Shown piece after piece: positions 18,307 to 35,855 of a DNA stretch of 64,000 nt. Every line of letters begins with the position of its first letter. Within the stretch, counting starts at the first letter, position 1. The notes beneath the pieces are model-generated. The model searched no databases and was not told the origin of the DNA. It saw only the letters and a program-made list of their open reading frames with translations. The translations under genes were made by a program, and so were the position numbers. This DNA is from Anaerolineae bacterium (GTDB lineage Bacteria; Chloroflexota; Anaerolineae; SpSt-600): assembly GCA_042408195.1 (NCBI GenBank), contig JBHOQL010000045.1, positions 282 through 64,281 of the forward strand, given 5' to 3'.

Positions 18307-19893
18307 GTGTTCTTCCATCGGGAAGAATGGTACAGAGGCTCCCATAAGGAAGCGATGCACAGGATTCCTGTCCTGGCGGTACTGTTTTTCTCCTCTACAG
18401 CTTTCTACCTCGGGGTGGCCTTTCTCCTGAGGGAACCAGGTTACATGGATGCCTGCTATTACTTTTCAGTGGCTGAGAGCATTGCCAGGGGCAAAGGCCT
18501 GATAGAACCTTTCCTTTGGAATTATCTGGATTCTCCGGGTTCCATCCCCCGTCCTGCTTTCACCTACTGGATGCCTCTCCCTTCGCTTCTGGCCTGGCCT
18601 TTCCTGATCTTTCCAGGGGCAAGTTACCTTACGGTTAGGTTGCCCTTCATCATCCTAGCCTCTTTTCTCCCGTTGCTCAGCTACAGGATAGCGGAAATCT
18701 TGCAAGAAAGGGCTTCAGAGAAGGTGGAAGCAATCCCCACCCTGGCTGCCATTCTCACCATTTTCTCTGGCTTTTACGTGGTTTACTGGCCCACCACTGA
18801 TAGCTTTGCCCCCTTCGCCCTGGCGGGAGGGCTCTGCCTTTTCCTCTGTGGGAACCTTATGAAAGACGGCTCCCATCTTCAAGCTTTCCTCACAGGGGTG
18901 ACGGCCGGCCTTGCCCACCTGGCCCGCGCCGACGGCTTCCTGCTGCTCTTACCTCTCGCCCTGCTCCTGCCCCGGCCAGAAAAGCGTAAGCTCGTTTTCC
19001 TCTCCGTTGCTGCTTATTCCTTTGTGATGGCTCCCTGGTTCATCCGTAATGCTTTTGTTCTCGGCTTTCCTCTGCCCGCCTGGGGCGCTAAAACCGCTTT
19101 CCTAACCAATTATGACGATCTCTTCTCTTATGATAAGGAAATTTCTCTGCGGAGCTACTTGGCCTGGGGGGCAAAGGCCATTATCGTTTCAAAGTTAAGG
19201 GCCGGATTGCTCAACTTTCAGACTGTACTGGCAGTCTTCCTCATGATCTTTCTGGCTGTTCCCTTTGCCTTCGGGCTCAAGAAGCTCTACCAACTTGCTT
19301 TCCTCAGACCCTTTCTCCTCTATGCCGTCATCCTTCTGCTGGTAATGACCCTTGTTTTCACTTATCCTGGCCCAAGAGGGAGCCTATTCCATTCCGGAGG
19401 CGCTCTTCTACCATTTACCATGGCGATATCAGCTGTCGGGATTAAAGCCATAAGTCGGACTTGGGCAGAGAAGCGGGGTCTTGATCCAGAAGTCCTCTGG
19501 CGGTTGAATTTTGCAGCAGCCCTTTTCCTTGCCTTCCTTGTCACCTCTTTCGCCCTTTTCCGAGCGGTGGAGCCTGGACGATGGAACCTGCGGGGAGAAG
19601 TCTACCGCAGCGCAGGAGCTTGGCTGGAGAAAAATGCACCTCCGGAAACCATTACGATGGTGGGCGATCCACCATGTTTCTACTACTATACCGCGCGCTC
19701 TTCCATCGTAATACCAAACGGAGATGAGGGGACAGTCCTTAAAGTAGCCAGGCGGTACGGTGCCTCTTTCCTCCTCCTGGAGCCCGATCATCCCCGCCCA
19801 CTGTCCACCCTCTACCTCAACCCCCATTCCCACCCGAGCTTCAGACCCGTGGCCACCTTCGAAAAGGCCATCCTGTTCCGGATTGAGCCATGA
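18307..19893 (+). CDS. Polytopic GT-C-type (ArnT/PMT-like) glycosyltransferase-like membrane protein
   Basis: It has about 10 or more hydrophobic helices, an early loop with YMDACYYFSVAES, and a soluble C-terminal domain. The start is uncertain (GTG 18307 or ATG 18355). Confidence 0.55.
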   Translation: MFFHREEWYRGSHKEAMHRIPVLAVLFFSSTAFYLGVAFLLREPGYMDACYYFSVAESIARGKGLIEPFLWNYLDSPGSIPRPAFTYWMPLPSLLAWPFLIFPGASYLTVRLPFIILASFLPLLSYRIAEILQERASEKVEAIPTLAAILTIFSGFYVVYWPTTDSFAPFALAGGLCLFLCGNLMKDGSHLQAFLTGVTAGLAHLARADGFLLLLPLALLLPRPEKRKLVFLSVAAYSFVMAPWFIRNAFVLGFPLPAWGAKTAFLTNYDDLFSYDKEISLRSYLAWGAKAIIVSKLRAGLLNFQTVLAVFLMIFLAVPFAFGLKKLYQLAFLRPFLLYAVILLLVMTLVFTYPGPRGSLFHSGGALLPFTMAISAVGIKAISRTWAEKRGLDPEVLWRLNFAAALFLAFLVTSFALFRAVEPGRWNLRGEVYRSAGAWLEKNAPPETITMVGDPPCFYYYTARSSIVIPNGDEGTVLKVARRYGASFLLLEPDHPRPLSTLYLNPHSHPSFRPVATFEKAILFRIEP

Positions 19894-21209
19894 GAGCCAA
19901 GCTTTTCCCCAGAATCCTGTTCGTTCTGCTCTTTTCCTTCCTGCTGGCCCTGGGCTATCGGGAGCAGGCCTTCGTTTCACTGGTCTCCTTCCAGGGAGAC
20001 ATAGCCCGTTCTCTGGAGGCTTTGGAGAGAGCGCGGGAACTCAACCCTTCAAACCCTTTTCCCCTTATACTGGAGGGGGAAAAGTACCTTCACTTGGGCC
20101 TCTACGATTACGCCTACAAGACCTTCTCCCTTGCTATAGAGATGGGCGGTGGGGTAAGGGCCATCGTTGGGCTCGGCGACGTTCTCTTCGCCCAAGGCAG
20201 GACAGAGGAAGCATTGGAACAGTGGCGCAAGGCCCTGCGGCTCAGCCCGCGCGATCCAACTTTGCACCGCAGGATAGGAAAAGCTCTCCTGAAATTGGGA
20301 GAGCTCAAAGAAGCCGCCTATCACTTGGAACGAGCCGACGACCCCTGTCTTCTGGCCCTGACCATCGCGCCCTTCGAGCCGCTTAGGGCTATTTCTCTCG
20401 CGCAGAACTGCCCTGAAATTCGGGGTTTAAGTACCGTTCTCTCTTACCCTGACAAGTTCCTCCTACTCAAAAAGCTGGGGGGATTTTATATCGCTCTGGG
20501 AGAATATGGAGCGGCGAAGGTCGTACTGGAAAAAGCCCTTGAGCTCTACCCGGAAACGGCGGAAGTTTGGGCCTTGCTGGGCCATGCCCTTTCTCGCCTT
20601 GGGCAGGATCCCACCCAAGCTTTTGCTAAGAGCCTGAAATTGGATTATGCTTTCCCAATGGGGCATTATCTCCTGGGATTGCACCTTCTATCTCAGGGTA
20701 AACTGGAAGAAGCCAAACGCAGGCTTCTTTACGCTCTATCCCTTGAACCTTCGAACCCCTACTTCCATACTGCGCTGGCCGAGATAGAAATCCGGAGAGG
20801 AAACTACAAGGAAGCGGAGAACAGGCTCAAACGAGCGGTTGAACTGGCTCCTGAGGAACTCAGTTTCCGCCTTTCCCTGGCTGAACTTCAAATTGCCACC
20901 CTAATGAGAGCTGACGATGAAGCTATGGAAAACGTCCGGAAAGTCCTGGAATTTTACCCCGATGAACCTATGGGATGGGAACTTGCGGGAATCGCCTACT
21001 ACTATGCTGGTCAGATAGCCCTGGCCGAATCTTGCCTCAAAAAGGTGCTGGAGCTTTCCCCGGATTCCCTTCGGGCCCTCTATTACCTTGGGCTTGTCTA
21101 CTCCTTAAAGGGGGAAAAGGAGAAAGCACGGCAAACCTTCAGGCAGATCCAGGAAATAGCACCTTCGAGCATTTGGGCCCAGAGGGCTTACTGGGCCGAA
21201 AGGAGGTAA
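19890..21209 (+). CDS. TPR-repeat protein with N-terminal membrane anchor
   Basis: Repeated A..Y/A...L..P 34-residue units (ALELYPETAEVWALLGHAL, ALSLEPSNPYFHTALAEI, etc.). ATGA overlap with the upstream gene. Confidence 0.8.
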   Translation: MRAKLFPRILFVLLFSFLLALGYREQAFVSLVSFQGDIARSLEALERARELNPSNPFPLILEGEKYLHLGLYDYAYKTFSLAIEMGGGVRAIVGLGDVLFAQGRTEEALEQWRKALRLSPRDPTLHRRIGKALLKLGELKEAAYHLERADDPCLLALTIAPFEPLRAISLAQNCPEIRGLSTVLSYPDKFLLLKKLGGFYIALGEYGAAKVVLEKALELYPETAEVWALLGHALSRLGQDPTQAFAKSLKLDYAFPMGHYLLGLHLLSQGKLEEAKRRLLYALSLEPSNPYFHTALAEIEIRRGNYKEAENRLKRAVELAPEELSFRLSLAELQIATLMRADDEAMENVRKVLEFYPDEPMGWELAGIAYYYAGQIALAESCLKKVLELSPDSLRALYYLGLVYSLKGEKEKARQTFRQIQEIAPSSIWAQRAYWAERR

Positions 21210-21304: not shown

Positions 21305-22843
21305 ATGAAGAAAATTTGGATTTTATCCACCGTTTTAGTTACAATAGCTGCGGCCTGTGCTCTAGTAGCAACTCCCACCCCCTCGGCTTTAACCCCAGCA
21401 CCCATCAAAGTGCTCAGAGTAGCCATTTTGGATGACATTGTCAATCTGGAGCCAGGCTTCCTTGTTTCGCGCTGGGATGACATGGTGATGAAAGCTATTT
21501 ACAGTAACCTTTTCGTCTTCAAACCAGGAACTTTTGAAATCATCCCAGACGCAGTTGAATCCTACGAAGTCTCTGAGGAAGGTTTAGAGATTACGTTCAA
21601 ACTCAAAGAAGGAATTAGATGGCATCGCGGATACGGTGAGCTCACAACAGAGGATGTTAAGTATACCTACGAATTGATCGCAAATCCTGATAGTGGTTCG
21701 CCGTATCAAGGGGACTGGGCAGCTTTGGACCGCGTAGAGATCATAGACAAATACAGGGGGAAGATCATCCTTAAGGAGCCTTTTGCCCCTCTGTGGAACA
21801 CGACTTTACCTGCTACCAGCGGTATGATTATGTGCAAGAGGGCCCGAGAGGAGATGGGCGATAAGCATGTTACCAACCCAGTTGGTTCAGGGCCCTATGA
21901 ACTTGTCGAATGGATCCCCAAGCAACGAATTGTCCTTCGTCGTTTTAAGGAGTATTACGGTGAACCGCCTTACTATGACGAGATTCACCTCTTTCCCTTA
22001 GAAGATGAGACAGCAGCTGAAGTAGCCCTTGAGGCAGGAGAGATTGACTGGACTATTATCTCCATACCAGCGATGGAACGCTTTGAGAAGGACAAACGCT
22101 TTGAAGTAGGAAAGGCCACCAGTTTGGGATATACTTGGATCGGCATGAATGTAGAGAATCCTAAACTTAAGGATATACGTGTGCGAAAAGCCATCCGCTC
22201 AGCCATTGATGTGGATTCTATTATCAAAGCTGTGTACTTCGGCAGGGTGGAAAGAGCTAAGGGATTAATTGCCCCAACTCTTATTGGGCACTGGTCTGAG
22301 GCCCCTATGAGAACCAGAGATATAGAAGAGGCGAAGCGTTACCTTAAAGAAGCCGGAGTTGAGACCCTTAGCCTATCTTTGGCTATAGAGAGCACCACTG
22401 AGATGCGCGCCATTGCTGAAATTGTGCAAGCAAATTTGAAAGAGGTGGGCATTAAAGTAGAAATCAACGCCATGGATTCCGCCACTTTCTGGGAGATAGG
22501 GTTTGGTGAGAAGGGTAAAGAAGTAGAGCTCTTCATTAGCGCCTACTCTATGGAGCCAGACCCCAGCTGGGCTACCATGTGGTTCACCTGTGATCAGGTC
22601 GGCCAATGGAACTGGCACCGTTGGTGCAATCCCCGTTTTGATGAGCTCCACTTACAGGCGCTCCGCACTCTTAACCCGGAAGAGCGAGCTAAATTGTACA
22701 TTGAGATGCAAAGGTTAATGGATGAAGACGCTATAGCCGTTTGGATCACTCACGGCTTGGTGCCTTACGCTTATATCAAAGGACTTCATCCTGCCCTCAC
22801 ACCACACGGCTATGCCCTTTTTGCCAAATTCACTGGACCATAA
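21305..22843 (+). CDS. ABC transporter substrate-binding protein, family 5 (peptide/nickel, DppA/OppA-like), lipoprotein-like signal
   Basis: Signal MKKIWILSTVLVTIAAAC; family-5 motifs LFVFKPGTFEIIPDAVESYEVSEEGLEITFKLKEGIRWH and VTNPVGSGPYELVEW. Confidence 0.9.
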   Translation: MKKIWILSTVLVTIAAACALVATPTPSALTPAPIKVLRVAILDDIVNLEPGFLVSRWDDMVMKAIYSNLFVFKPGTFEIIPDAVESYEVSEEGLEITFKLKEGIRWHRGYGELTTEDVKYTYELIANPDSGSPYQGDWAALDRVEIIDKYRGKIILKEPFAPLWNTTLPATSGMIMCKRAREEMGDKHVTNPVGSGPYELVEWIPKQRIVLRRFKEYYGEPPYYDEIHLFPLEDETAAEVALEAGEIDWTIISIPAMERFEKDKRFEVGKATSLGYTWIGMNVENPKLKDIRVRKAIRSAIDVDSIIKAVYFGRVERAKGLIAPTLIGHWSEAPMRTRDIEEAKRYLKEAGVETLSLSLAIESTTEMRAIAEIVQANLKEVGIKVEINAMDSATFWEIGFGEKGKEVELFISAYSMEPDPSWATMWFTCDQVGQWNWHRWCNPRFDELHLQALRTLNPEERAKLYIEMQRLMDEDAIAVWITHGLVPYAYIKGLHPALTPHGYALFAKFTGP

Positions 22844-22852
22844 GCTCTTACC

Positions 22853-24874
22853 GTGACTCTTTCCCGGTCTTGGGCAGTAGAGGAGATAGTGCGTTTTCGT
22901 TGCCCTGCAGAAGTGAGATGGGCACCGAATGGTTCTTGTATTGCCTACGTTTTAAGAGGTCAAGGGAGAGAAGAACTGTGCTTAGTGAATCTTTCAGGTG
23001 AGAGGAAATGCTTGCCACCCCTCCCTTCTTCCCCGGCGGCTGTGATGTGGGGCGGTGTAGAACCTTCTTATGTTTGGCATCCAAAGGATAATGCTCTGCT
23101 CCGCGTCTCAGAAGGCTTTTGGATATACGATCTCCGAACTGGTCAACAGGAAAAACTGTTCTCTATTGAGGAACCAGTATCACACCCTTCATGGGCACCT
23201 GATGGCCAACGGTTTGCCTTTCGTCTGGGAGACCGGGTGGGTTTATATGATCTGAGGACTTCTTCAACTGTTTCCTTCCCGTTACCTGGTCTGGTTTATA
23301 AATTTGCACCCCATCTGAAATGGTCGCCTGACGGAAGTCTCATAGCCGTGGCTTTCCGGCGTCATAGTGCCGATGGTAAACCAGTCAAACGAGGGCTGGA
23401 TATAGCAGTAATTTCATTAGAAGGCAAGGTGGTCTGGGCTACGGATACTGCTGGTACAGTAGCCAACCCTCAGTGGGTAAATAGTGAGCAATTGCTTTTT
23501 ACACGCTACAATGACACCCGTACGGTAGCCGAATACGTGTTGGTCCACATACCCACAAAAGCTGAGAGGGTTTTGTTAGTCGAAGAGGAACCCAGAGGTT
23601 TGCTCCCAGATTTTGTGGAGGGGTTAGGTTCCCGGGGACCTTTTCTCTCTCCCAAACGGGATGAAGCTATACTTATCTGCTCCACAGGGGGATGGCCCCA
23701 CCTCCACTTACTTGATTTGGAAAAAGGCCTCCTTAGGCAAATTACCTATGGGGAAAACGAAGACTTTAATCCAACCTGGTCTCCCGACGGGAAATACATT
23801 GCCTATCTCTCCAATAGAGGCCCTTCCTTAGCCAGTCTTGGGGTGTGGGTGCTAAACAGAGAAAGCGGTGAATCGAGGCCGGTATTTTCCCTTCCCGGTG
23901 CTAAGGGTGAATTGAGCTGGTCACCTCAAAAGCCCAATAGGGGTAGAAACCTCCCCGCCCTCACCTTATTACACGCCGGGCCAGGCGAGCCGCCTGGCTT
24001 GTGGATAGTTGGGTTGGATGGCAAGAGTGCCACCCGGCTGGTCTCGAGTGAAGGGATGTGGGGTCATGATTTACCACCCAAGGAAGTGTGGATTGCGGCT
24101 ACTGATGGGTATCGGACGCCGGGGATTCTCTACACCCGGCCCGATTTAAAAAAGAGGCCTGGAATCATCTGGTTACACGGTGGACCATATATGCAATATT
24201 ACTTGGGTTGGCCCATTGATTATGGTTATTGCATGTACTACGCCTTTCATCAGTTCCTCGTCCAAAAGGGATATTCTGTCCTTTACTTAAATTACCGGGG
24301 CAGCACTGGCTATGGAGTCGAGCACGAACAGGGTAACTACCTCGGGATTGGTATGGCTGAACTCGCTGATATTGCTGGAGCTGCCCGTTTTCTTTCGTCT
24401 TTACCTCAGGTAGAAGGTCAACCCCTCTGTATCGCGGGAACTTCATACGGGGGATTTTTAGCTCTCAGCGCCTTGACCCGGCTTCGGGGTCTATTTCGTC
24501 TGGGGGTGGTTATAGCGGGGCTGGGAGATCTGGCAAGCTCTCTGGATACCTCCGGCCCTGATTTTTGGGATGACTCCACCTACTTCCGCTGGCGAATGGG
24601 CTGGTCTGCGGAGCAAAATCCTCAGGCATGGCGAGGGGCAAATGTCCTTGTAGATTTAGAAAGCTTAGAAGCACCAGTGGTGATCTTCCATGGCTTGGAA
24701 GATCAAGCCGTGCCAGTTGAAGAAGCTTATAAAGTGGAAAGGCTCTGTCGGGAGTTAGGTAAAAAATGTTTCACCCACTATTATCCCGGAGAAGACCATA
24801 TCTTTTCTTCGGAAAAGACGTGGCGCGATGTGTTCACACATATTCTTAAATATCTGGAAGAATTCGTAGGGTAG
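22853..24874 (+). CDS. S9-family serine peptidase (prolyl oligopeptidase / acylaminoacyl-peptidase type) with a TolB-like beta-propeller
   Basis: Repeated W(A/S)P(D/N)G blades. The C-terminal hydrolase domain has GTSYGGFLAL (GxSxGG), then FHGLEDQAVP and GEDHIF (Asp/His). Confidence 0.85.
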   Translation: MTLSRSWAVEEIVRFRCPAEVRWAPNGSCIAYVLRGQGREELCLVNLSGERKCLPPLPSSPAAVMWGGVEPSYVWHPKDNALLRVSEGFWIYDLRTGQQEKLFSIEEPVSHPSWAPDGQRFAFRLGDRVGLYDLRTSSTVSFPLPGLVYKFAPHLKWSPDGSLIAVAFRRHSADGKPVKRGLDIAVISLEGKVVWATDTAGTVANPQWVNSEQLLFTRYNDTRTVAEYVLVHIPTKAERVLLVEEEPRGLLPDFVEGLGSRGPFLSPKRDEAILICSTGGWPHLHLLDLEKGLLRQITYGENEDFNPTWSPDGKYIAYLSNRGPSLASLGVWVLNRESGESRPVFSLPGAKGELSWSPQKPNRGRNLPALTLLHAGPGEPPGLWIVGLDGKSATRLVSSEGMWGHDLPPKEVWIAATDGYRTPGILYTRPDLKKRPGIIWLHGGPYMQYYLGWPIDYGYCMYYAFHQFLVQKGYSVLYLNYRGSTGYGVEHEQGNYLGIGMAELADIAGAARFLSSLPQVEGQPLCIAGTSYGGFLALSALTRLRGLFRLGVVIAGLGDLASSLDTSGPDFWDDSTYFRWRMGWSAEQNPQAWRGANVLVDLESLEAPVVIFHGLEDQAVPVEEAYKVERLCRELGKKCFTHYYPGEDHIFSSEKTWRDVFTHILKYLEEFVG

Positions 24875-24877
24875 CCT

Positions 24878-25828
24878 ATGATTCGTTATTTGCTCAAACG
24901 GACGGCTATGACCGGGGGAGTGGTCCTTTTGGTAACCCTGCTGGTGGCCCTAATGCCTCACCTTGTGCCTGGTGATCCTGCAAGGGTAATACTGGGCCCA
25001 AAAGCCACAGAGAGACAAGTCGCCATGGTGCGCCGGGTTATGGGTCTGGATGATCCAGTACCAATAAGAGTGGGCAAGTTCATGTGGAACGCCTTGCGAG
25101 GAGATTTAGGGACTGATTTTTGGACCCAGCGCCCTGTAAGAGATATGATTGGCGATGCTTTGCCTCACACTGTTATTTTGGCCGTAGCTGCTTTAAGCTT
25201 CGCTGCCTTTCTGGGCATCCCTTTGGGGGTTTATTCAGCTACTCGCCCTAACACTTTGGTTGACCGGCTCATCAGTGTGGTTTCCATTTCTCTGGTTACC
25301 ATCCCTTCTTACGTGGCTGGTCTACTCCTTTTGTTGCTCTTTGGTGTTCAGCTCCGCCTGCTGCCAACGATGGGGGCTGGGGATTTGTCCAACCCATGGG
25401 ATTACTTAAAACACCTAATACTGCCGGCGACCGCTTTGGGTATCTCTTGGATCGGCTATCTGGCTCGCTTGGTGCGAACCAGTCTCCTGGAAGTCCTGAA
25501 CACTGATTATATACGCACTGCCCGAGCTTTTGGCCTGCCAGAGTGGCTGATAAGTTTTAAATACGCCCTAAAGAACGCTCTGATCCCGACCGTAGCCACC
25601 CTTGGGGTGAGCTTGGGAAGCCTTATGGGAGGGGCAGTATTTGAGGAGATCATCTTTTCTCGTCCCGGGATGGGCATGCTCATTTACACCGGGATTATGA
25701 CCCGAAATTATCCTGTGGTACAGGGGGGAGTACTTGTGGTAGCTCTCCTTTTCGTGGCTGTCAACCTTCTGGCAGATATATCGTATAATTATCTGGACCC
25801 ACGGATTCGCAAGGAGGGCCTTCAGTGA
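24878..25828 (+). CDS. ABC transporter permease (DppB/OppB-like)
   Basis: N-terminal MIRYLLKRT, and the EAA-type loop DYIRTARAFGLPEW. Confidence 0.9.
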   Translation: MIRYLLKRTAMTGGVVLLVTLLVALMPHLVPGDPARVILGPKATERQVAMVRRVMGLDDPVPIRVGKFMWNALRGDLGTDFWTQRPVRDMIGDALPHTVILAVAALSFAAFLGIPLGVYSATRPNTLVDRLISVVSISLVTIPSYVAGLLLLLLFGVQLRLLPTMGAGDLSNPWDYLKHLILPATALGISWIGYLARLVRTSLLEVLNTDYIRTARAFGLPEWLISFKYALKNALIPTVATLGVSLGSLMGGAVFEEIIFSRPGMGMLIYTGIMTRNYPVVQGGVLVVALLFVAVNLLADISYNYLDPRIRKEGLQ

Positions 25829-26688
25829 GGGCTTGGGAAGGCGTGGTAAGCCTGGTTTGGGAGATAGCCAAAAGGCCAGGAGGATCATTTGGTTTAGTTG
25901 TTATAACAACTATGGTGGTTGCTGCCATAGTTGCTCCACTTATTGCCCCCTTTAGCCCAGCCGATCAAGACATGGACAGCCTTTTACAACCCCCGTCTAG
26001 GGAACACCCCTTAGGGACAGATCACCTGGGTCGCGACCTCTTTTCTCGTCTGATTTTTGGTTCGCGCATTGCCTTAGCTACAGCGCTTCCTGCGGTCTTG
26101 CTTAGTGCTTTTATGGGCCTTGCTCTGGGGCTCATTGCGGGCTTCTTCGGCGGTGTGGTGGATGGGATAATTGTCACCTTCCTGGATGCAGTTATGTCCT
26201 TCCCTAGTGTTATCCTCGCCCTGGCGCTTATGGCTTTGCTTGGCCCCTCACTTCTGAACCTCGTATTGGTAATAGCTATTACCTGGATGCCTTTCTACGC
26301 TCGCTTAGCTAGAGCGGAAATTTTATCGGCCAAGCAGAATGAATATGTGGAAGCAGAAATTGCGATAGGAGCCAGCACTTTTCGGATTATCGTCAGGCAT
26401 ATTTTGCCCAATATCATTTCACCCATTGTGGTTGCTATGGCTATGGACCTGCCAGTAGTTATTACCACTGAAGCAGGCTTCTCCTTCCTCGGCCTTGGCG
26501 TTAGGCCTCCGCAGCCTTCTTGGGGGGTCATTTTAAGCGACGGATTTGATTATATCCGTTACAGTCCTTGGCCTATTCTGTTCGCATCCTTGACTCTAAT
26601 AGTGGTGACTCTGGGTTTCACTCGGTTTGGTGAGGCTCTCAGAGACGTGATGGACCCCCGTTTTCGAGGACTGGAGGCACCGCGATGA
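25825..26688 (+). CDS. ABC transporter permease (DppC/OppC-like)
   Basis: HPLGTDHLGRDLFSRLIFGSR, EYVEAEIAIGAS. GTGA overlap with the upstream permease. Confidence 0.9.
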   Translation: MRAWEGVVSLVWEIAKRPGGSFGLVVITTMVVAAIVAPLIAPFSPADQDMDSLLQPPSREHPLGTDHLGRDLFSRLIFGSRIALATALPAVLLSAFMGLALGLIAGFFGGVVDGIIVTFLDAVMSFPSVILALALMALLGPSLLNLVLVIAITWMPFYARLARAEILSAKQNEYVEAEIAIGASTFRIIVRHILPNIISPIVVAMAMDLPVVITTEAGFSFLGLGVRPPQPSWGVILSDGFDYIRYSPWPILFASLTLIVVTLGFTRFGEALRDVMDPRFRGLEAPR

Positions 26689-28724
26689 CTACTCTTTTAG
26701 AAGTTAAAGGATTAGAAGTGCATTATTTCACTCCCAAGGTGGTCCTCCCTGCCCTGCGGGATGTTTCCTTCCGATTGGGCGAAGGCGAAGTGCTGGGCAT
26801 TGTGGGGGAATCAGGATGCGGAAAATCCACCACTGCTTTAGCTATTATGGGCTTACTGCCACCAAATGGGCGGATCTTGGGAGGCCAAATTCGGTTCAAA
26901 GGGCAGGATTTGATCTGTATGGAACCAGATAAATTGCGCCGTTTGCGTGGTGCTGAGATAGCTATGATTTTTCAGGATCCGATGTCCAGCCTGAACCCGG
27001 TGCTAACTATAGAGACTCAAATGTTAGATATACTGAGAGCCCATCCGGAAAAATGGACTGGAGAGAATCCTCAGGAGATAGTGGTGAATATGCTGCGGAG
27101 AGTCGGTATCCCAGACCCGGAGGCGCGCCTTAAGCTCTATCCTTTCCAGTTCTCCGGAGGTATGCGCCAGCGGATTATGATCGCCATGGCGCTGATGCTT
27201 CGCCCAGCTTTGCTCATAGCCGATGAGCCCACTTCATCCTTGGATGTAACGTTAGAAGCCCAGATACTTGATCTGATCCAAGAACTTAGGCAGGAATTCC
27301 AAACCAGTATCCTGTTCATTTCCCACGACCTGGGGGTCATCGCACAAGTGTGCGACCGGGTAGCCGTCATGTATGCGGGGACTATAGTGGAGGAGGGGGA
27401 TGTATTCTCCATTTTTGATGCTCCGTTTCATCCTTACACGCAGGCTCTCCTTGCTTCTCATCCAGCGCGACATCGGCGGGGAGAAAGGCTTGCCACTATA
27501 CCCGGCAGAGTACCAAATCTCGCCGCCTTGCCTCCAGGCTGTAAATTTGCCGAACGTTGTTCGTATGTAAAGCCTATTTGCCAACAACAGGAGCCGCGAT
27601 GCATTGAGGTGGATGGAAGAGTTGTGCGTTGTCACCAGTTGGACTTCACGCGCAAAATCGGGACCTCAAAATCTTTTCTTGACTCCAAGCCTGAAAGTTT
27701 ATCAAAAGGGGAAAATCTTCGCCGAGCTAACATTCCCCAGAGCGCAGAATGGGTGCTGGAGATAAAGGATTTATGCACTTATTTTCGCGCATCGGGAGGA
27801 CTTCTCAGCCAATTCCTCCAGCGCAAGCCTAAAGAGGTCCGCGCTGTAGATGGGGTGTCGTTACGCATTGCCCGGGGCGAGATCTTCGGATTAGTTGGCG
27901 AATCCGGCTCTGGAAAAACCACCCTGGGAAAAACTATATTGCGATTGTTATCCCCAACTGCGGGTCAGGTGTGGTTTGAGCAGCGTGATATCACCCGATT
28001 AGGGGCAAAGGAACTACGCCCACTCCGGAGGCGCATGCAGATAATCTTCCAGGACCCTATCTCCAGCCTCAGTCCCCGGTTAAGGATTTCAGAGCTTTTG
28101 ATCGAGCCATTTATAGTTCATGGCTTGCCAGTAGATCCTGAAAGCACAATATCAAAATTGCTGGAAATGGTCGGGCTTACAAATGAGCTCGCGACAAAAT
28201 ACCCCTATCAGCTTTCCGGAGGACAGGCAAGGAGAGTGGGTATTGCCAGGGCGCTGGCCCTTGAGCCTGTTTTCCTGGTCGCTGATGAACCTACATCAGG
28301 ACTGGATGTCTCAGTAGCAGCCGGTATTCTTAACCTAATTAAAGACCTGCGTGATGAATTCGGGCTTACCTGCTTAATCATTACTCACAACCTCAACATA
28401 GTAGGCTTTCTATGCGACCGGGTAGGGGTGATGTATTTAGGAAAATTGGTGGAAATGGGGCCAACGGAGCGCATTCTTGAAGCACCACTCCACCCCTACA
28501 CTGTAGCTCTGCTTTCAGCAGTAGCAGAGCCCGATCCCAGGTGCAGAAAAAGAAGGGAAGAACGTTTTCATATAAGGGGCGAAATCCCCAGTCCGTTGAA
28601 CCCACCCTCAGGGTGCCGTTTTCACCCGCGGTGCCCATTAGCCATGAATATATGCTCAAACGAAGAACCTGCGTTCCGCGAAGTAGAGCCTGGTCACTGG
28701 GTAGCTTGTTCCCGCCTAAAGTGA
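26685..28724 (+). CDS. Fused tandem ABC ATPase (DppD-like plus DppF-like domains in one polypeptide)
   Basis: Two complete sets of motifs: GESGCGKST/FSGGMRQR/LLIADEPTSSLD, then GESGSGKTT/LSGGQARR/FLVADEPTSGLD. Each half is followed by the oligopeptide-type C-terminal Cys-containing extension. Confidence 0.9.
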   Translation: MTTLLEVKGLEVHYFTPKVVLPALRDVSFRLGEGEVLGIVGESGCGKSTTALAIMGLLPPNGRILGGQIRFKGQDLICMEPDKLRRLRGAEIAMIFQDPMSSLNPVLTIETQMLDILRAHPEKWTGENPQEIVVNMLRRVGIPDPEARLKLYPFQFSGGMRQRIMIAMALMLRPALLIADEPTSSLDVTLEAQILDLIQELRQEFQTSILFISHDLGVIAQVCDRVAVMYAGTIVEEGDVFSIFDAPFHPYTQALLASHPARHRRGERLATIPGRVPNLAALPPGCKFAERCSYVKPICQQQEPRCIEVDGRVVRCHQLDFTRKIGTSKSFLDSKPESLSKGENLRRANIPQSAEWVLEIKDLCTYFRASGGLLSQFLQRKPKEVRAVDGVSLRIARGEIFGLVGESGSGKTTLGKTILRLLSPTAGQVWFEQRDITRLGAKELRPLRRRMQIIFQDPISSLSPRLRISELLIEPFIVHGLPVDPESTISKLLEMVGLTNELATKYPYQLSGGQARRVGIARALALEPVFLVADEPTSGLDVSVAAGILNLIKDLRDEFGLTCLIITHNLNIVGFLCDRVGVMYLGKLVEMGPTERILEAPLHPYTVALLSAVAEPDPRCRKRREERFHIRGEIPSPLNPPSGCRFHPRCPLAMNICSNEEPAFREVEPGHWVACSRLK

Positions 28725-28762
28725 ACCCATAACATCGGGATTTTAAAGAGGAGGTTAAAATA

Positions 28763-30166
28763 ATGCTGCGCTTAAGGGTATTAGGCGAGGAAGGGGTAAA
28801 ACGTGTGCACGAAGCAACCCTGCGCCTCCTTTCTGATGTGGGAGTTGTATTGACTCACCCATATGCAAGAGGGCTGCTGTTAGATCATGGAGCTCATACT
28901 TCAGGGGATCGTGTACTTATTCCAGCCGACTTGGTGGAAAGTTGTTTGACTAGATGTCCACGCAAGGTTAAAATACAGGGCCGCGACCCGCAGAAGGCTA
29001 TAGAATTAGGGGATGGCTCCTGGCATGCCCACAACGTTGGAGGAGTACCCAATATCTCCGATGGGGAAGCACGACGCCAGGCCAAGCGTAAAGATGTGGC
29101 TGAAGCAGCTCGCTTGCTGGATGCTTTGCCCAATGTTTCCAGCGTGACCCCTCTTTTCACTCCTCACGACGTCCCTGGAGTTTCAATGGCGTTGTGGATG
29201 TATTACGACACAGTAACCAACACCACCAAGCCAATTCATGGCCCTGGAGTGCAAACGGCCAGTGAAGTTCGCGCTCTGGTGGAAATGGCTCGCATTGCTT
29301 GTCCAGACGGAACTTTAACAGTCGGGGTATCCCCTCTTAGCCCCCTTTCTTTTCCAGATGACGTGGTAGAGGCTATAATTGAAGCGGCTCATTTGGATAT
29401 ACCATTGGGCCCGCTTCCTTGCCCGATTATGGGGGCCACTGCTCCCATGTCAATAGCGGGGGCACTGGTGCAACAGAACGCTGAAGTGTTAGCATCTATT
29501 GTCTTGGCGCAGCTGGTGCGTCCAGGTCTGCCGATAATCTATACCGGGCGGCTCAGTGTAATGAACCCGCGTACAGGCCTTTCCGTATGGGGAAATCCAG
29601 AGATCGGGTTAATCTCAGCTGCCACTGTGGAGATTGGCCATCACTATGGGCTTCCGGTTAACGTCTATGGGTTATGCACCAATGCTCATACCCCTGATAT
29701 ACAAAGTGGTTATGAGCGGGCCCTCAACGTCCTTGTCCCAATATTAGCTGGAGCAGATGAAATCTCTGGGGTTGGTGAGTTGGAGGGTGGAATAACAAGT
29801 TCCCTGGTCCAGATAATCATAGACGATGAGATTTTATCCAGCATTAAGCGAATCCGGCGAGGGTTTGAAGTAAACGAGGAGACTCTGGCAGTGGATGTTA
29901 TAGCCCGGGTAATGACTGGCTCTAGGAATTTCCTGGCAGAGATGCACACTGTCAAATACCTGCGACAGGGGGAAGTGTGGCTTCCACGCTTAGCTGTGCG
30001 AGAGAGTTGGCACGAATGGGAAAAAACAGGCCAGCGAGGAATTGTGGAAAGAGCTAAGGAAAAGGTAGCGGAGTTACTTGCTCGCCATGAGGTTCCCCCA
30101 TTAGATGAGAAACAGGATGCTGCAATGAAAGAAGTAATCAAAGCGATGGAGCAAAAACAAGTTTAA
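28763..30166 (+). CDS. MttB-superfamily (trimethylamine methyltransferase-like) methyltransferase, non-pyrrolysine type
   Basis: MLRLRVLGEEGVKRVHEATLRLLSDVGV and length (467 aa) match the MttB family. The frame is uninterrupted, with no in-frame TAG. GAGGAGG RBS. Confidence 0.85.
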   Translation: MLRLRVLGEEGVKRVHEATLRLLSDVGVVLTHPYARGLLLDHGAHTSGDRVLIPADLVESCLTRCPRKVKIQGRDPQKAIELGDGSWHAHNVGGVPNISDGEARRQAKRKDVAEAARLLDALPNVSSVTPLFTPHDVPGVSMALWMYYDTVTNTTKPIHGPGVQTASEVRALVEMARIACPDGTLTVGVSPLSPLSFPDDVVEAIIEAAHLDIPLGPLPCPIMGATAPMSIAGALVQQNAEVLASIVLAQLVRPGLPIIYTGRLSVMNPRTGLSVWGNPEIGLISAATVEIGHHYGLPVNVYGLCTNAHTPDIQSGYERALNVLVPILAGADEISGVGELEGGITSSLVQIIIDDEILSSIKRIRRGFEVNEETLAVDVIARVMTGSRNFLAEMHTVKYLRQGEVWLPRLAVRESWHEWEKTGQRGIVERAKEKVAELLARHEVPPLDEKQDAAMKEVIKAMEQKQV

Positions 30167-30175
30167 GGAGGTGAA

Positions 30176-31621
30176 ATGAGCATCACTGTGGTGGGACTTG
30201 GGCCGGGTGATCCCAACCTCATCACGAGGGAAGTTTGGGAAATCTTGCAGAATGCCAAAGAGGTTTACCTGCGCACCGTAAAACATCCCACTGTAGCTTT
30301 TCTCCCCAAAGATCTTACGGTCCGTTCCTTTGACCATTTTTACGAGGAAAAAGAGACCTTTGACGAGGTCTACAGAGCTATAGCCGAAGAGGTTGTCAAA
30401 CTCGGGGCAAGGCCAGAAGGAGTGATTTACGCTGTGCCCGGACATCCCTTAGTAGGAGAAACCACTACCCGGCTTATCCTGGAAATAGCTTCTGAGAGGG
30501 GCGTGGAAGTTACGATCAAGGACGGTGTAAGCTTTCTGGATTCCCTTTTCAGCCTCCTAAGGCTTGACCCCCTCGAGGGATTGCAAGTAGTGGATGCATC
30601 AGAGCTCGCCTCCCACCACTATCCCAAGCTTGACCCCGACCGGCCCGCTGTGGTGGGCCAGCTCTACGACCGTTTCCTGGCTTCTCAGATTAAAGCTGCC
30701 CTGCTAGATGTATACCCCGAAGAGCATCCTGTCACTCTTGTCAGGGGGGCAGGCACTCCGACCCCAGTGATCCGCACTTTCCCTCTGCATGAACTCGACC
30801 GCCAGGAGGAAATTGATCACCTTACATCTCTTTTCATCCCACCCCTCCCCGAGGAAAGCTCTTTCATCTCCCTCCAAGAGATCGTGGCTCACCTTCGCTC
30901 TCCAGAGGGGTGTCCGTGGGATCGCCAACAGACCCACAAGAGCATACGGCCTTTCCTCCTCGAGGAAACCTATGAGGTTTTAGAGGCGCTGGATGAGGAA
31001 AATCCTGCTAAACTCCGGGATGAACTCGGGGACTTGCTGCTTCAGATCCTACTTCACGCCCAAATCGCTCTTGAAGAAGGAGAATTTCGCCCCACAGAAA
31101 TCATCGTTAACCTCATCCGCAAGCTTAAGCGGCGCCACCCTCATGTCTTCGGCGAGGTTAAAGTGAAGGATGCTGAAGAAGTGGTGCATAGATGGGAGAA
31201 GATAAAGCGGGAGGAAAGAGGAGAAGAGCTTATCTCTCTGCTCGATGGGGTCCCCAGAGCCCTCTGCGCTCTGGCTCAGGCCCAAGCTTACCAGCGGAAG
31301 GCTGCTGAGGTAGGCTTTGATTGGGAAAGTGCAGATGGGGTTTGGCAAAAGCTAGAGGAAGAACTGGCCGAACTCAAGGCTGCTCGCTCTCCGGAGGAAG
31401 TAGAGAAAGAAATCGGGGATGTCCTTTTCACCGTGGTGAGCCTTGCCCGCTGGTTCAAAGTTGACGCCGAAAGTGCCCTGCGCATGGCCAATGCCCGCTT
31501 CGCCTCCCGTTTCAGATACATTGAAACGGAGGCCATAAAAAGGGGCGGAAAGCTTGAGGAGCTTGACCTGAAAGAGATGGACGCCCTTTGGGAGGAAGCC
31601 AAAAACCTTGAGGAGGAATGA
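30176..31621 (+). CDS. mazG: YabN-type fusion: tetrapyrrole-methylase-like N-domain plus MazG nucleoside-triphosphate pyrophosphohydrolase
   Basis: ITVVGLGPGDPNLIT (TP-methylase fold), then two MazG repeats (ETYEVLEALDE...ELGDLLLQI and KLEEELAEL...EIGDVLFTVV). Confidence 0.85.
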   Translation: MSITVVGLGPGDPNLITREVWEILQNAKEVYLRTVKHPTVAFLPKDLTVRSFDHFYEEKETFDEVYRAIAEEVVKLGARPEGVIYAVPGHPLVGETTTRLILEIASERGVEVTIKDGVSFLDSLFSLLRLDPLEGLQVVDASELASHHYPKLDPDRPAVVGQLYDRFLASQIKAALLDVYPEEHPVTLVRGAGTPTPVIRTFPLHELDRQEEIDHLTSLFIPPLPEESSFISLQEIVAHLRSPEGCPWDRQQTHKSIRPFLLEETYEVLEALDEENPAKLRDELGDLLLQILLHAQIALEEGEFRPTEIIVNLIRKLKRRHPHVFGEVKVKDAEEVVHRWEKIKREERGEELISLLDGVPRALCALAQAQAYQRKAAEVGFDWESADGVWQKLEEELAELKAARSPEEVEKEIGDVLFTVVSLARWFKVDAESALRMANARFASRFRYIETEAIKRGGKLEELDLKEMDALWEEAKNLEEE

Positions 31622-32265
31622 CTATGGAGGCTCTGCTGGAAGAAATGATCGAAGCTCTCTACAATGGCGAGATTGACAGGGTAGCCGAACTAACCCGCAA
31701 AGCCCTGGATAAGGGCATTCCACCCGAGGAAATCCTCAACAAGGGCCTTATTGCCGGAATGGAGAAAGTGGGCAAAGATTTCCGCGATGGTATACTATTT
31801 GTGCCGGAAGTGCTGGTGGCAGCTTACGCCATGAAGACAGGGATGGAAATCCTACGGCCTCTTTTGGCAGAAACAGGGGTTTCGAGCCTAGGCACTTTCG
31901 TCATTGGCACCGTTAAGGGCGACCTCCACGATATCGGCAAGAACATGGTGGCCATGATGCTGGAAGGGGCAGGGTTCAGGGTAGTGGACCTCGGAGTTGA
32001 TACCCCACCGGAAAAGTTCGTGGAGGCCGTGAAAGAGTACAAACCCCAGATCGTGGGGATGTCTGCCCTCCTGACTACCACTATGGTAGAAATGAAGAGG
32101 GTAATAGAGGCCCTGAAGGAAGCCGGTCTGCGGGACAGAGTCAAAGTTATGGTTGGAGGCGCTCCAGTAACTCAGGAATACGCCGATGAGATCGGAGCCG
32201 ACGGCTACGCCCCGAATGCTTCTTTGGCCGTTGAAAAGGCAAAAGTTTTACTGGGGGTAAGCTGA
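31618..32265 (+). CDS. Cobalamin-binding corrinoid protein (MtbC/MttC/MtgC-like)
   Basis: B12-binding-2 helical cap, then a Rossmann domain with GDLHDIGKNMV (DxHxxG) and MSALLTTT. ATGA overlap with the mazG stop. Confidence 0.85.
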   Translation: MTMEALLEEMIEALYNGEIDRVAELTRKALDKGIPPEEILNKGLIAGMEKVGKDFRDGILFVPEVLVAAYAMKTGMEILRPLLAETGVSSLGTFVIGTVKGDLHDIGKNMVAMMLEGAGFRVVDLGVDTPPEKFVEAVKEYKPQIVGMSALLTTTMVEMKRVIEALKEAGLRDRVKVMVGGAPVTQEYADEIGADGYAPNASLAVEKAKVLLGVS

Positions 32266-32267
32266 CC

Positions 32268-33140
32268 ATGGAAACGAAGCTCATGGGTATCGCTAAATCC
32301 GTCATCATATCCCCTGAACGTCCCGTAGTCCTCATTGGAGAGAGGATCAATCCCACTGGGAAGAAACGGTTGACCGCTGCCTTGAAAGCCGGTGATATGG
32401 GCATCGTGCAGCAAGAGGCCATTGCACAGGTAAGAGCCGGAGCTGATGTGCTAGACGTAAACGTGGGAGCAGCTGGGGTTGATGAAGTTCAGCTGCTCCC
32501 CCAGGCCCTCAGAGCAGTCTTGGAAGTGGTGGATGTACCCCTTTGTATAGATTCTTCCAACCCTCGCGCTCTCAGTTCTGCTCTGGAAACGCTGCGGAAG
32601 ATCGCGCCGGAGGCCAGGCCTATCCTCAATTCGGTGAACGGAGAGGAGCGCTCCCTTAACCGGGTTTTGCCCCTCGTTAAGGATTACGGTACGGCCGTTA
32701 TCGCCCTGGCCATGGATGAGAAGGGAATACCTTCAACCCCGGAAGAGCGGCTTGCAGTGCTTGAAAGAATTTTTGAAAGGGCCCACGGCATGGGAATACC
32801 AACGGAGGACATCATCGCTGACCCCCTAGCTTTGACCGTGAGCTCCGACAGCAAAGCCGCCCTGGTGGCTTTTCAAACAATAAAACTTGTTAGGGAAAGG
32901 CTCGGATGCAACATAACCATCGGGGCCAGCAACGTCTCCTTCGATCTGCCTGAGCGAGAGGTAATCAATGGAGCCTTTTTGGCCATAGCCATCGCTCTTG
33001 GAGTTAACTGCCCCATTGTGGATGTGGCCAAGGCTCGCCCCATTGTTCTGGCGACGGATCTCCTCCTCGGGCGCGACCCCTTTGCTATGCGTTACATAAA
33101 AGCCTACCGGGAGCGCGCCTCCGGAAGTACTAAGCCCTGA
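32268..33140 (+). CDS. Pterin-binding methyltransferase (methyl-corrinoid:tetrahydrofolate methyltransferase, MtgA/MtrH/AcsE-like)
   Basis: IGERINPTGKKRL...LDVNVG...CIDSSNP...NSVNGE...IGASNVSF is the TIM-barrel pterin-binding (DHPS-like) pattern. Confidence 0.8.
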   Translation: METKLMGIAKSVIISPERPVVLIGERINPTGKKRLTAALKAGDMGIVQQEAIAQVRAGADVLDVNVGAAGVDEVQLLPQALRAVLEVVDVPLCIDSSNPRALSSALETLRKIAPEARPILNSVNGEERSLNRVLPLVKDYGTAVIALAMDEKGIPSTPEERLAVLERIFERAHGMGIPTEDIIADPLALTVSSDSKAALVAFQTIKLVRERLGCNITIGASNVSFDLPEREVINGAFLAIAIALGVNCPIVDVAKARPIVLATDLLLGRDPFAMRYIKAYRERASGSTKP

Positions 33141-33199
33141 GCTTTTGCGTCTTATGGGTTTTTGGGCTAAAATCCCTCAAAACCCGGAAGGTGGCAACC

Positions 33200-33649
33200 A
33201 TGAAGATAGCAGTTATAGACGGACTTGGAGGAGGAATCGGGGCTGAAGTAGTGGCCCGACTGAGGCAGGAACTGCCCCTTGAGGTGGAGATAATCGCCTT
33301 GGGCACCAACGCCATCGCCACCGACAAGATGATGAAGGCCAAAGCCAACCGAGGAGCCACGGGGGAAAACGCTATACGCATATCGATCCGGGAAGCCGAT
33401 TTCATAATAGCCCCGCTGAGCATCCTCATCCCTCATTCCCTTATGGGGGAAGTGACTCCAGGAATAGCGGAGGCTGTGGCTTTGGCTCCAGGCCATAAAC
33501 TGATCCTACCCATAGTTCAGCCGGGCCTTGAGATCCTCGGCCTTGAATGGAGGCCTTTATCCAAGCAGATCGGCGAGGCCGTGCAGATCATAAAGCGCAA
33601 AGCGGGACTCCTGCCCGAAGAGAGTAAGGAAATCGTAAGGGAATCGTAA
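33200..33649 (+). CDS. DUF3842-like small protein
   Basis: MKIAVIDGLGGGIGAEVVARLRQ... has a Rossmann-like N terminus. GGAAGG RBS upstream of the ATG at 33200. Confidence 0.55.
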   Translation: MKIAVIDGLGGGIGAEVVARLRQELPLEVEIIALGTNAIATDKMMKAKANRGATGENAIRISIREADFIIAPLSILIPHSLMGEVTPGIAEAVALAPGHKLILPIVQPGLEILGLEWRPLSKQIGEAVQIIKRKAGLLPEESKEIVRES

Positions 33650-33739
33650 GGATTGCGTAAAGCAAAAGGCTGCCTCTTTTTCTTAAAATAAAAGCGGGGT
33701 GTAGGGGGCAAGGCCAGCAACCCGGATTCTCCTCCTTAG

Positions 33740-33780
33740 CACGAAGTCGGGGGCAAAAGCGCCCCCGACTTCGTGTTTTA
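33740..33780. terminator. Hairpin terminator between convergent operons
   Basis: cacgaagtcggggg-caaaagcg-cccccgacttcgtg is a 14-bp stem, followed by TTTTA on the + strand. On the minus strand it lies 9 nt after the aminotransferase stop. Confidence 0.6.
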
Positions 33781-33788
33781 CGGCCCTC

Positions 33789-34949: not shown

Positions 34950-35855
34950 TTACAAAGGTGTAGCAAGTTTCTCCAGCGTTTCCCTGAAATCCACCCACCT
35001 TATGCGGGACAGGCCAAGCTTGCGGCGCAAGTGCTCGGGCTCCATCCCGGCTTTAAAATCCTTGAGAGCCCTCGTCCACCGCAGCATCTCAAAGGTAACG
35101 CTGCGGTTGAGACCCGCTGCCTGAGCCAGCTCGTGCAGGACATACTCAAGGTTCCGGCCTGTACACTCAAAGAGCCTTTCCCTGGGTCCGTATTGCTCAA
35201 GGTAGGCTTTGAGGATGGGGACAATCTCGGGAGGAAGGGCTAACCTGCGTTCCTTATACTGCAGCTTAGGATTGCTGTAGCGGATAAGAACCGCAGGATT
35301 TACAGGATCGGATAAGTCAAAGTCAACCGGGCGCAGGCTCAGGCACTCACTTTTTTTGATCCCGGTGCTGAGAAGCAAGAGGAAGAGGAGAAAAGGCCTG
35401 TAATCGGGGTCGGGGCCGGCAGCCAGACGGTTGGCTGCCTCAAGCAGGGCAGTAATTTCCTCATCCGTCAGAAACTCTGGAAGGGGTGGCTTAGCTGGCC
35501 GGTGAGGGATAGGAGCAGCCGGGTCCTCGGGAATTGCCCCGATCCTCCGCAGCCATCGGAAGAAAACCTTCAGGGTCGTGAGACGCCTGGCGTAGGATTT
35601 GGGGCTGCAGGGAACTCCTCGCTTGTAGAGCAGGTAATCTAAGAAGCCTTTAAGTTCTAAGACCCCTATGGTCCCTATAGGCCTGTCCTTACCCAGGTAA
35701 CGGCTCAGTAAGCTTAAATCCCAAAGGAAAGACTTCCTGGTGTTTAGAGTGAAACCCTCCCTTTCCATGTAGCCTTTGAAGGCCTCAATGGCTTCGGCAA
35801 GGGGGGTGCGGGTCGTCAGCTTAGCTTCTTCCAATAAAGGAAGCTGCTTAGCCAT
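34950..35855 (-). CDS. Tyrosine-recombinase (XerC/D, phage-integrase) fold protein with a degenerate active site
   Basis: SAM-like N-domain (AIEAFKGYMEREGFTLNTRKSFLWDLSLLSRYL) and a catalytic-domain scaffold, but STGIKKSE (Arg to Lys), FEMLRWT (first His to Glu) and LGLSRIRWVDFRETL (no Tyr). It overlaps the PBP1A 3' end by 40 nt. Confidence 0.7.
   Translation of the reverse strand: MAKQLPLLEEAKLTTRTPLAEAIEAFKGYMEREGFTLNTRKSFLWDLSLLSRYLGKDRPIGTIGVLELKGFLDYLLYKRGVPCSPKSYARRLTTLKVFFRWLRRIGAIPEDPAAPIPHRPAKPPLPEFLTDEEITALLEAANRLAAGPDPDYRPFLLFLLLLSTGIKKSECLSLRPVDFDLSDPVNPAVLIRYSNPKLQYKERRLALPPEIVPILKAYLEQYGPRERLFECTGRNLEYVLHELAQAAGLNRSVTFEMLRWTRALKDFKAGMEPEHLRRKLGLSRIRWVDFRETLEKLATPL

Follow-up and report, generated by a model that had tools for sequence, protein, structure and literature searches.

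An Anaerolineae operon joining a peptide-type importer and an S9 peptidase to an MttB-superfamily methyl-transfer module

The stretch of DNA analysed here, referred to as the window, is a 64,000-nt segment from an uncultured bacterium of an Anaerolineae lineage, in the Chloroflexota (assembly GCA_042408195.1, contig JBHOQL010000045.1, positions 282 to 64,281 of the forward strand). The subject of this report is an operon on its + strand, at positions 21305-33649, where the genes for a peptide-type ATP-binding cassette (ABC) importer and an S9 serine peptidase are followed by those for a corrinoid-dependent methyl-transfer system built around a non-pyrrolysine member of the MttB superfamily. 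Ten tightly packed genes, spaced by -4 to 59 nt and with a 4-nt overlap in three of the pairs, form a single transcription-unit-like block. The original prediction, made from the letters alone, had described the common strand, the tight packing and the overlaps, all of which stand, together with gaps of 0-59 nt, a range that has to be corrected as above; its count of eleven genes also has to be lowered to the ten open reading frames (ORFs) found, which is the number of items in its own list. All the domain assignments that it had made for the operon were borne out by Pfam and NCBIfam profile searches. The features are the following:

21305..22843, + strand: family-5 (DppA-like) binding lipoprotein, 512 aa (SBP_bac_5, 271 bits)
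22853..24874, + strand: S9 serine peptidase, 673 aa (Peptidase_S9 PF00326, 109 bits; PD40 repeats; DPPIV_N)
24878..25828, + strand: DppB/OppB-type permease, 316 aa (BPD_transp_1 and BPD_transp_1_N)
25825..26688, + strand: DppC/OppC-type permease, 287 aa (BPD_transp_1 and OppC_N)
26685..28724, + strand: fused DppD-DppF ATPase, 679 aa (two ABC_tran and two oligo_HPY domains in one chain)
28763..30166, + strand: non-pyrrolysine MttB-superfamily methyltransferase (methyltransferase I), 467 aa (MTTB)
30176..31621, + strand: YabN (TP_methylase and MazG), 481 aa (NF052436, 592.8 against a cut-off of 525)
31618..32265, + strand: corrinoid (B12-binding) protein, 215 aa (B12-binding and B12-binding_2)
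32268..33140, + strand: pterin-binding methyl-corrinoid:tetrahydrofolate methyltransferase (methyltransferase II), 290 aa (Pterin_bind)
33191 (ATG at 33200)..33649, + strand: DUF3842 protein, 152 or 149 aa (DUF3842, 164 bits)
33738..33781, + strand: intrinsic-terminator hairpin of 17 pairs with a 6-nt loop, then a U run

The 38-nt spacer between the ATPase gene and the mttB gene (28724/28763) folds into no significant structure (z = -1.07), and by this check the transporter genes run into the methyltransferase genes without a terminator, as had been proposed. The strong hairpin that had been noticed after the DUF3842 gene was confirmed by folding: the segment 33738-33777, followed by UUUU, reaches -35.6 kcal/mol (z = -7.8), and none of 200 shuffled sequences folds as well. 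No cobalamin riboswitch or other upstream regulatory RNA was found by Rfam, which in the window returned five tRNAs only, and a scan for promoter and terminator consensus sequences gave counts near the shuffled expectation. The five tRNA genes form a cluster on the - strand, at 39138-39968.

The MttB homologue is matched by the MTTB family (PF06253) over residues 4-461 of its 467 (293 bits) and by the TIGR02369 model with 378 bits, which is under the cut-off of 525. Its ORF has no internal stop, in agreement with the earlier observation that an in-frame TAG is missing, and Cys305 occupies the column of the pyrrolysine in Methanosarcina barkeri MttB. The AlphaFold model (predicted local distance difference test, pLDDT, 91) has the triose-phosphate isomerase (TIM) barrel fold, with Foldseek template-modelling (TM) scores of 0.90 to M. 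barkeri MttB (7xcl) and to MtgB of Desulfitobacterium hafniense (2qne and 9yce). In terms of sequence and profile the best match is the M. barkeri MttB/MttC system (210 bits to 7xcl, besides the TIGR02369 score). A pattern scan of one genome per species yielded 287 confirmed MttB relatives, the best 80 of which were used as survey loci (identified below by L numbers); these best 80 are all from Chloroflexota, mostly Anaerolineae, and share 51-72% identity with the window protein. In a neighbour-joining tree with MtgB and pyrrolysine-containing MttB, two references that were both reconstructed from printed alignments, 77 of the 80 form a monophyletic group, here named the MttB star clade. Identity is at least 46% within the clade and about 29-32% to MtgB and pyrrolysine MttB, the window protein itself having about 29% with the former and about 32% with the latter.

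The clade also has its own substrate pocket. In MtgB glycine betaine is bound by Y97, R312, H348 and F356 (PMC13080624), and the corresponding residues in the window protein are Gly, Asn, Ser and Gly; throughout the clade they are Gly (77/77), Asn (70) or Asp (7), Ser (77/77) and Gly (77/77). The column of the pyrrolysine is mostly Ser (64), with Cys in 9 members, Ala in 3 and Thr in 1. Pyrrolysine MttB has Gly, like the window protein, at the Y97 and F356 columns. Six members of the superfamily are characterised; those other than the pyrrolysine enzyme, five in number, use free acidic quaternary amines as substrates (PMC12155760, PMC13080624) and are all reported to keep R312, which binds the acidic group (PMC13080624). 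The star-clade residues and the tree thus indicate that these proteins are neither MtgB nor pyrrolysine MttB and lack the hallmark of acidic quaternary amine binding; the placement of the window protein outside the glycine-betaine clade, with all four MtgB residues replaced, bears out the original prediction. The separation from MtpB, MtcB, MtyB and MthB is drawn from the published statement on R312. Without this Arg, a free amino-acid betaine is a less likely substrate, at least one bound in the known way; therefore the star-clade enzyme may act on a peptide-bound group before hydrolysis, or else bind its substrate differently.

Besides the star clade, three conserved groups of MttB paralogues occur at these loci, with 18, 9 and 8 members; at the Y97, R312, H348, F356 and pyrrolysine columns they have S/H/S/L/A, G/S/L/S/A and V/A/P/S/S, and none has the Arg. 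Up to five MttB-family genes lie in one cluster with a single corrinoid protein (L053, L055, L084, L050 and other Anaerolineae).

Downstream of mttB, the remaining parts of a methyl-transfer system are identified by profile. The corrinoid protein scores 231.5 with TIGR02370 (cut-off 215.3) and has a DLHDIG motif at residue 102; the pterin-binding methyltransferase scores 275.9 with PRK07535 (cut-off 259) and only 22.7 bits with the MtgA model. Methyltransferase I, corrinoid protein and methyltransferase II are thus all present by profile, in the arrangement known from MtgB, MtgC and MtgA of D. hafniense, likewise an MttB-superfamily enzyme with a DxHxxG corrinoid partner and a second, pterin-binding methyltransferase; differently from MtgA, the window enzyme is of the AcsE/MeTr-like PRK07535 type. 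The methyl acceptor in the window points to a folate route, not to coenzyme M as for M. barkeri MttB/MttC. The same route, with a non-pyrrolysine methyltransferase and a corrinoid protein leading to tetrahydrofolate, is shared with the Eubacterium limosum systems MtpB/MtcB/MtyB with MtqC/MtqA and MthB/MthC/MthA; conversely, the E. limosum enzymes use free acidic quaternary amines and reportedly keep R312 (PMC13080624), where the star clade has Asn or Asp.

The lack of a RamA-type reductive activase, which had been noticed for the operon, was confirmed and extends further: tblastn with the RamA of L065 revealed no homologue in the 64-kb window, and Pfam recognised none among the four window ORFs of the size expected for RamA (585-622 aa). 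RamA is present in the clusters of 5 related Anaerolineae with star-clade MttB; therefore the missing activase is probably encoded elsewhere in the genome. No M20, C45, GntR or further MttB copies were found in the window.

The identity of the transporter follows from its parts: a family-5 binding protein, two permeases and ATPases with oligo_HPY domains are what characterises an importer of the Dpp/Opp type (PepT family), and no betaine- or choline-type carrier gene is present in the operon, unlike in the MtgB system. The binding protein has a lipobox-like N-terminus, MKKIWILSTVLVTIAAAC, and its best solved relative is Escherichia coli DppA (157 bits); other solved relatives have nickel, haem, agropinic acid, agrocinopine or peptides as ligands. 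The same set of components is found in E. coli DppABCDF; in the window, differently from E. coli, the two ATPases are fused, and a peptidase gene lies between those for the binding protein and the permeases. The DppC/OppC-type permease gene (25825-26688) overlaps both its neighbours, by 4 nt each. Arg355 of DppA is not conserved in the window protein and the column of Asp408 holds Glu; this column is Asn in L020, while most binding proteins linked to star-clade clusters have a shifted Asp.

From its sequence, the S9 peptidase is a cytoplasmic protein with an intact catalytic triad, and its function as a peptidase is predicted. It has no signal peptide and carries a GTSYGG motif (Ser531), and Ser531, Asp617 and His649 are invariant in the alignments of homologues. 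Likewise, S9 proteins encoded beside star-clade mttB genes keep the triad in 35-36 of 36 cases, and the N-termini inspected are devoid of signal peptides. The AlphaFold model (pLDDT 87.9) consists of a beta-propeller and a hydrolase domain and is closest to bacterial dipeptidyl peptidase IV (DPP-IV) and prolyl tripeptidyl peptidase (TM 0.73-0.81); the score is lower for the acylaminoacyl peptidase of P. horikoshii (AAP, TM 0.60-0.64), and the sequence matches include acyl-peptide hydrolases at about 60-70 bits. Proteins of the window type have a private acidic insertion in the propeller, L-x-E-E/Q-E-P-x-G-(4)-DFVEGLG, at residues ~240-262, which is absent from all other S9 homologues aligned. 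In DPP-IV a Glu-Glu motif serves as anchor for the N-terminal cation, and by analogy the insertion is a possible anchor of the same kind.

The conservation of this association was surveyed in the 80 species-representative Chloroflexota loci by tblastn with the window proteins, all ORFs being clustered and cluster representatives scanned; the loci belong to related species of one phylum, and the counts are not independent events. S9-like genes are present in 35 of the 80 loci, family-5 binding proteins in 34, OppB-type permeases in 32, extra MttB paralogues in 25, corrinoid proteins in 17 and pterin methyltransferases in 4. Of the 32 loci whose flanks extend for at least 5 kb in each direction, 26 encode an S9 or a family-5 binding protein no farther than 10 kb away, and 15 encode both. 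The S9 gene ends no more than 400 nt upstream of star-clade mttB, on the same strand, in 25 of the 62 loci with enough upstream sequence. Directly 3' of mttB, the gene codes for an M20D aminoacylase in 17 of 66 loci, for a family-5 binding protein in 15 and for a C45 hydrolase in 5, and an amide hydrolase directly adjoins mttB in 31 of 56. The M20D aminoacylase (TIGR01891, 355 bits) occurs in 28 loci, usually directly downstream of mttB; it belongs to the M20D N-acyl-amino-acid amidohydrolase subfamily, with ILL2, YxeP and N-acyl-glutamine aminoacylase as relatives. A C45/AAT N-terminal nucleophile (Ntn) hydrolase is found in 11 loci, a GntR/FCD regulator in 8 and a Met_synt_B12-like protein in 4; further neighbours are Amidohydrolase_3, creatininase-family and DUF2817 proteins, an amino-acid permease and aminotransferases.

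A typical large cluster, for example in L053 and L055, comprises GntR, the corrinoid protein, one or more MttB paralogues, S9, star-clade MttB and M20D, followed by an MttB paralogue, the binding protein, two permeases, two ATPases, the pterin methyltransferase and RamA. The linkage withstands changes in the order and orientation of the genes: the transporter lies upstream in some clusters, downstream in others and divergently in yet others, the S9 gene can precede mttB or follow the ATPases, and in L006 an M14 carboxypeptidase takes the upstream place of S9. The linkage is also seen when the peptidase is the starting point. A search for the window-type S9 in 5.8 billion proteins returned about 10 clusters with at least 54% identity, after which identity drops to 29% or less, and all homologues in the 54-80% range whose context is readable adjoin star-clade mttB; in L018, L092, L093 and L094, four contexts beyond the lineage of the window, S9 is directly followed by a star-clade MttB of 65-71% identity. 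Thus, this rare S9 subfamily is seen only beside star-clade MttB. The linkage of S9, importer and MttB on which the original prediction depended is therefore conserved in many Chloroflexota species with varied gene orders, and reciprocally from S9; the partnership of star-clade MttB with peptidases or aminoacylases is obligate-looking. No report of a linkage between MttB, a peptidase and a peptide transporter was found in the full-text literature, whose coverage is incomplete.

Two genes of the operon do not take part in this pattern. YabN, translationally coupled between mttB, from which it is 9 nt away, and the corrinoid gene, which it overlaps by 4 nt, is found inside the operon only in the lineage of the window and in none of the 80 other Chloroflexota star-clade loci; its homologues at 63% and 57% identity adjoin ribosomal-protein or unrelated genes, and its closest named relatives are from Anaerolineae and Chloroflexi. 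DUF3842, the final gene of the operon, is shared with L001 and L089, the closest relatives, alone; in L002 other genes take its place, and it is likewise absent from all 80 other loci. The original prediction had listed both as parts of the operon module; they are better described as lineage-specific passengers. A role of YabN in the methyl-transfer module, for example as an S-adenosylmethionine-dependent reactivator replacing RamA, was considered and rejected on the basis of its absence from the 80 loci and its unrelated contexts elsewhere. YabN is most likely a housekeeping passenger gene.

What is known in this picture is a corrinoid-dependent MttB-superfamily system that feeds tetrahydrofolate; what is new is the pocket of the clade, the peptidase and aminoacylase partners and the peptide-type importer. 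The E. limosum systems differ in their accessory features, the partners of star-clade MttB being peptidases or amidases and its transporter of the peptide type. The reading that we favour, although belief and doubt are evenly balanced, is that of a single catabolic pathway encoded by the operon, its substrate being a methylammonium compound that is peptide-borne or amide-linked in another way. The DppA-like lipoprotein and the Dpp-type importer would take up a short peptide or peptide-like molecule, which would be the methyl donor. This molecule would be cut in the cytoplasm by the propeller-gated S9 peptidase and, in most relatives, also by an M20D or C45 hydrolase, these enzymes and star-clade MttB presumably sharing one substrate molecule. 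MttB would take a methyl group off the nitrogen, which is presumably quaternary, and place it on the corrinoid protein in its Co(I) state, and the pterin-binding methyltransferase would hand it on to tetrahydrofolate; this direction of methyl flow is the one expected from the known systems of the superfamily. The simplest candidates for the methylated residue would be an N-alpha-trimethylated N-terminus or N-epsilon-trimethyl-lysine.

The idea of such a methyl-donor route is strongly supported at the level of gene neighbourhood, and the recurrence of the linkage in many related species suggests a probably peptide-borne methyl donor, which as a type of substrate is so far undescribed for the MttB superfamily. 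MttB might act before or after hydrolysis. The order that the original prediction had put forward, release by S9 and then demethylation of a free betaine, is weakened because the substrate-binding Arg is Asn or Asp in the clade. A precedent for a cluster enzyme that converts a precursor to the substrate is the kinase MthK, which makes phosphocholine for MthB (PMC12155760). As for the hydrolases, S9 and M20D flank star-clade MttB in relatives and thereby resemble another known pair of enzymes. The route formed by APEH, an S9C propeller peptidase, and the M20 aminoacylase-1 (ACY1) degrades N-blocked or N-acetylated peptides; the pairing of S9 and M20 parallels it and thus fits the idea of a blocked N-terminus. 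Differently from that route, the window has no M20, its S9 model is nearer to DPP-IV, and no methyltransferase takes part in the classical pathway.

Several observations weigh against a peptide-borne donor. Family-5 binding proteins also carry non-peptide ligands, and the cargo may be something other than a peptide; in the window protein the DppA Asp408 column is Glu, and there is no sign of a special cage for a quaternary amine. Six of the 32 full-flank loci are devoid of both S9 and family-5 binding proteins over 10 kb, and in L005, L031 and L037 star-clade mttB stands alone beside FolC or ABC-2 genes. Anaerolineae live by peptide fermentation and have many Opp systems and peptidases; some of the co-localisation counted above is therefore to be expected. 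Star-clade MttB could simply demethylate a free small methylamine that enters the cell by another route, with the importer and the peptidases being genes of amino-acid nutrition that are co-located or co-regulated with one-carbon (C1) and folate metabolism in peptide-fermenting Anaerolineae, whose genomes carry many Opp systems. Consistent with this, L041 joins the three loci just named in having neither a peptidase nor a transporter beside MttB, and at L091:10286-13494 S9 and M20 lie side by side with no MttB nearby. We nevertheless regard mere co-location as rather improbable, given that S9 immediately adjoins MttB on the same strand in 25 of 62 loci and does so over 51-72% MttB identity despite rearrangements elsewhere in the cluster, that the rare S9 subfamily is found only beside star-clade MttB, and that the S9 gene of the window is embedded in a transporter operon that runs without a terminator into mttB.

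A related explanation retains the hydrolases but not the peptide: the imported compound would be a small conjugate, joined through an amide or ester bond but not a peptide, from which S9, M20D and C45 free a quaternary amine for MttB; betainyl- and carnitinyl-amino acids, acylated trimethyl-lysine and opine-like compounds are examples. It draws on the solved relatives of the binding protein, which include the proteins for nickel, haem, agropinic acid and agrocinopine, on the assignment of the M20 neighbour to the M20D N-acyl-amino-acid amidohydrolases, and on the presence of Amidohydrolase_3, creatininase and DUF2817 genes in the clusters. Yet the window binding protein is nearest to true dipeptide binders (DppA), the S9 model is nearest to DPP-IV and prolyl-tripeptidyl exopeptidases, and a freed betaine would carry a carboxylate for which star-clade MttB lacks the binding Arg; this explanation is unlikely, albeit one to be kept in mind. 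By contrast with all catabolic readings, the module could run in the synthetic direction, from methyl-tetrahydrofolate through the corrinoid protein to an MttB that methylates an imported peptide or amine, or MttB might not be a methylamine enzyme at all. Such a reversal is possible in principle for pterin methyltransferases and corrinoid proteins, as was shown for the shared MtgC/MtgD module (PMC12478193), and the star-clade pocket is unlike that of all characterised members; against this, a binding-protein-dependent importer with hydrolases points to catabolism, all six characterised members pass the amine methyl to Co(I) (PMC12155760), and RamA co-clusters in relatives as it does in catabolic systems, so that we hold this possibility to be very improbable.

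Within the peptide-borne reading there is a more daring version, which we consider rather improbable, in which star-clade MttB and its paralogues are corrinoid-dependent peptide demethylases that act directly on peptides with a trimethylated N-terminus or Lys. MttB would then unblock peptidase-resistant necromass peptides, delivering the methyl to tetrahydrofolate, and S9, M20D and C45 would finish the hydrolysis afterwards. On this view, a peptide chain would be accommodated thanks to the small pocket residues (Gly, Ser and Gly for Tyr, His and Phe) and the lost carboxylate-binding Arg. N-alpha-methylation has been described without a known eraser (PMC10293735); if direct demethylation is true, this would be the first known 'eraser' of N-alpha-methylation.

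What can be said of the clade is that it is large and coherent, has a different pocket and is present in at least 77 Chloroflexota species representatives, and that a new class of substrates, with peptide-borne or amide-linked methylammonium groups, is predicted from its conserved association, seen in both directions, with peptidases, aminoacylases and peptide importers. Anaerolineae are abundant in digesters, sediments and wetlands and are poorly understood; if the proposed route is true, the harvesting of methyl groups from methylated protein residues would be a niche of these bacteria and a new way from necromass into C1 and folate metabolism. It could also give an answer to whether N-terminal methylation has a demethylating enzyme (PMC10293735). 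The compact operon of the window, with one each of MttB, corrinoid protein, pterin methyltransferase, S9 and importer, is a practical set for reconstitution.

Outside the operon, aldehyde:ferredoxin oxidoreductase, 2-oxoacid:ferredoxin oxidoreductases and HypD/HypE are encoded in the flanks and indicate that the host is an anaerobe. The same set of ten genes with matching flanks is found in L089 (Anaerolineae metagenome-assembled genome GCA_033580795.1), the shared flanks being a tetratricopeptide repeat (TPR) gene on the 5' side and an aminotransferase gene, an integrase-like gene and a PBP gene on the 3' side. This match, together with the Anaerolineae and Chloroflexi origin of the nearest named YabN homologues, led to the rejection of another idea, suggested by YabN and DUF3842, in which the host would be a Firmicute with a cluster taken over from Chloroflexota. 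The full operon is kept in L001, L002 and L089, where MttB is 81-84% identical; conservation among such close kin has little independent weight. Upstream, a 528-aa ORF (18307-19893) without Pfam match, in a stretch with strongly negative AT skew (-0.214) and GC skew (-0.12), overlaps the start of the gene for the 439-aa TPR protein (19890-21209); the two genes keep their place ahead of the operon in L002, and the TPR gene does so in L089 as well. Some 1.3 kb past the end of the operon, beyond a convergent aminotransferase gene, lies a 301-aa tyrosine-recombinase-like gene (34950-35855, - strand) with a weak Phage_integrase match; its position is kept in L001 and L089, and it is therefore likelier to be of the XerC/D type than a marker of a mobile element.

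Two further loci deserve mention. At L005:8607-11398, in the Anaerolineae chromosome CP070818, star-clade mttB and the end of a FolC-like Mur-ligase gene overlap, with no transporter, peptidase or corrinoid protein nearby. L004 (JAWCBU010000099.1, GCA_038863295.1) is a 4.9-kb contig binned as 'Candidatus Bathyarchaeia archaeon' that shares the order of the Anaerolineae lineage, namely permease, fused ATPase, MttB and YabN; its binning is probably an error.

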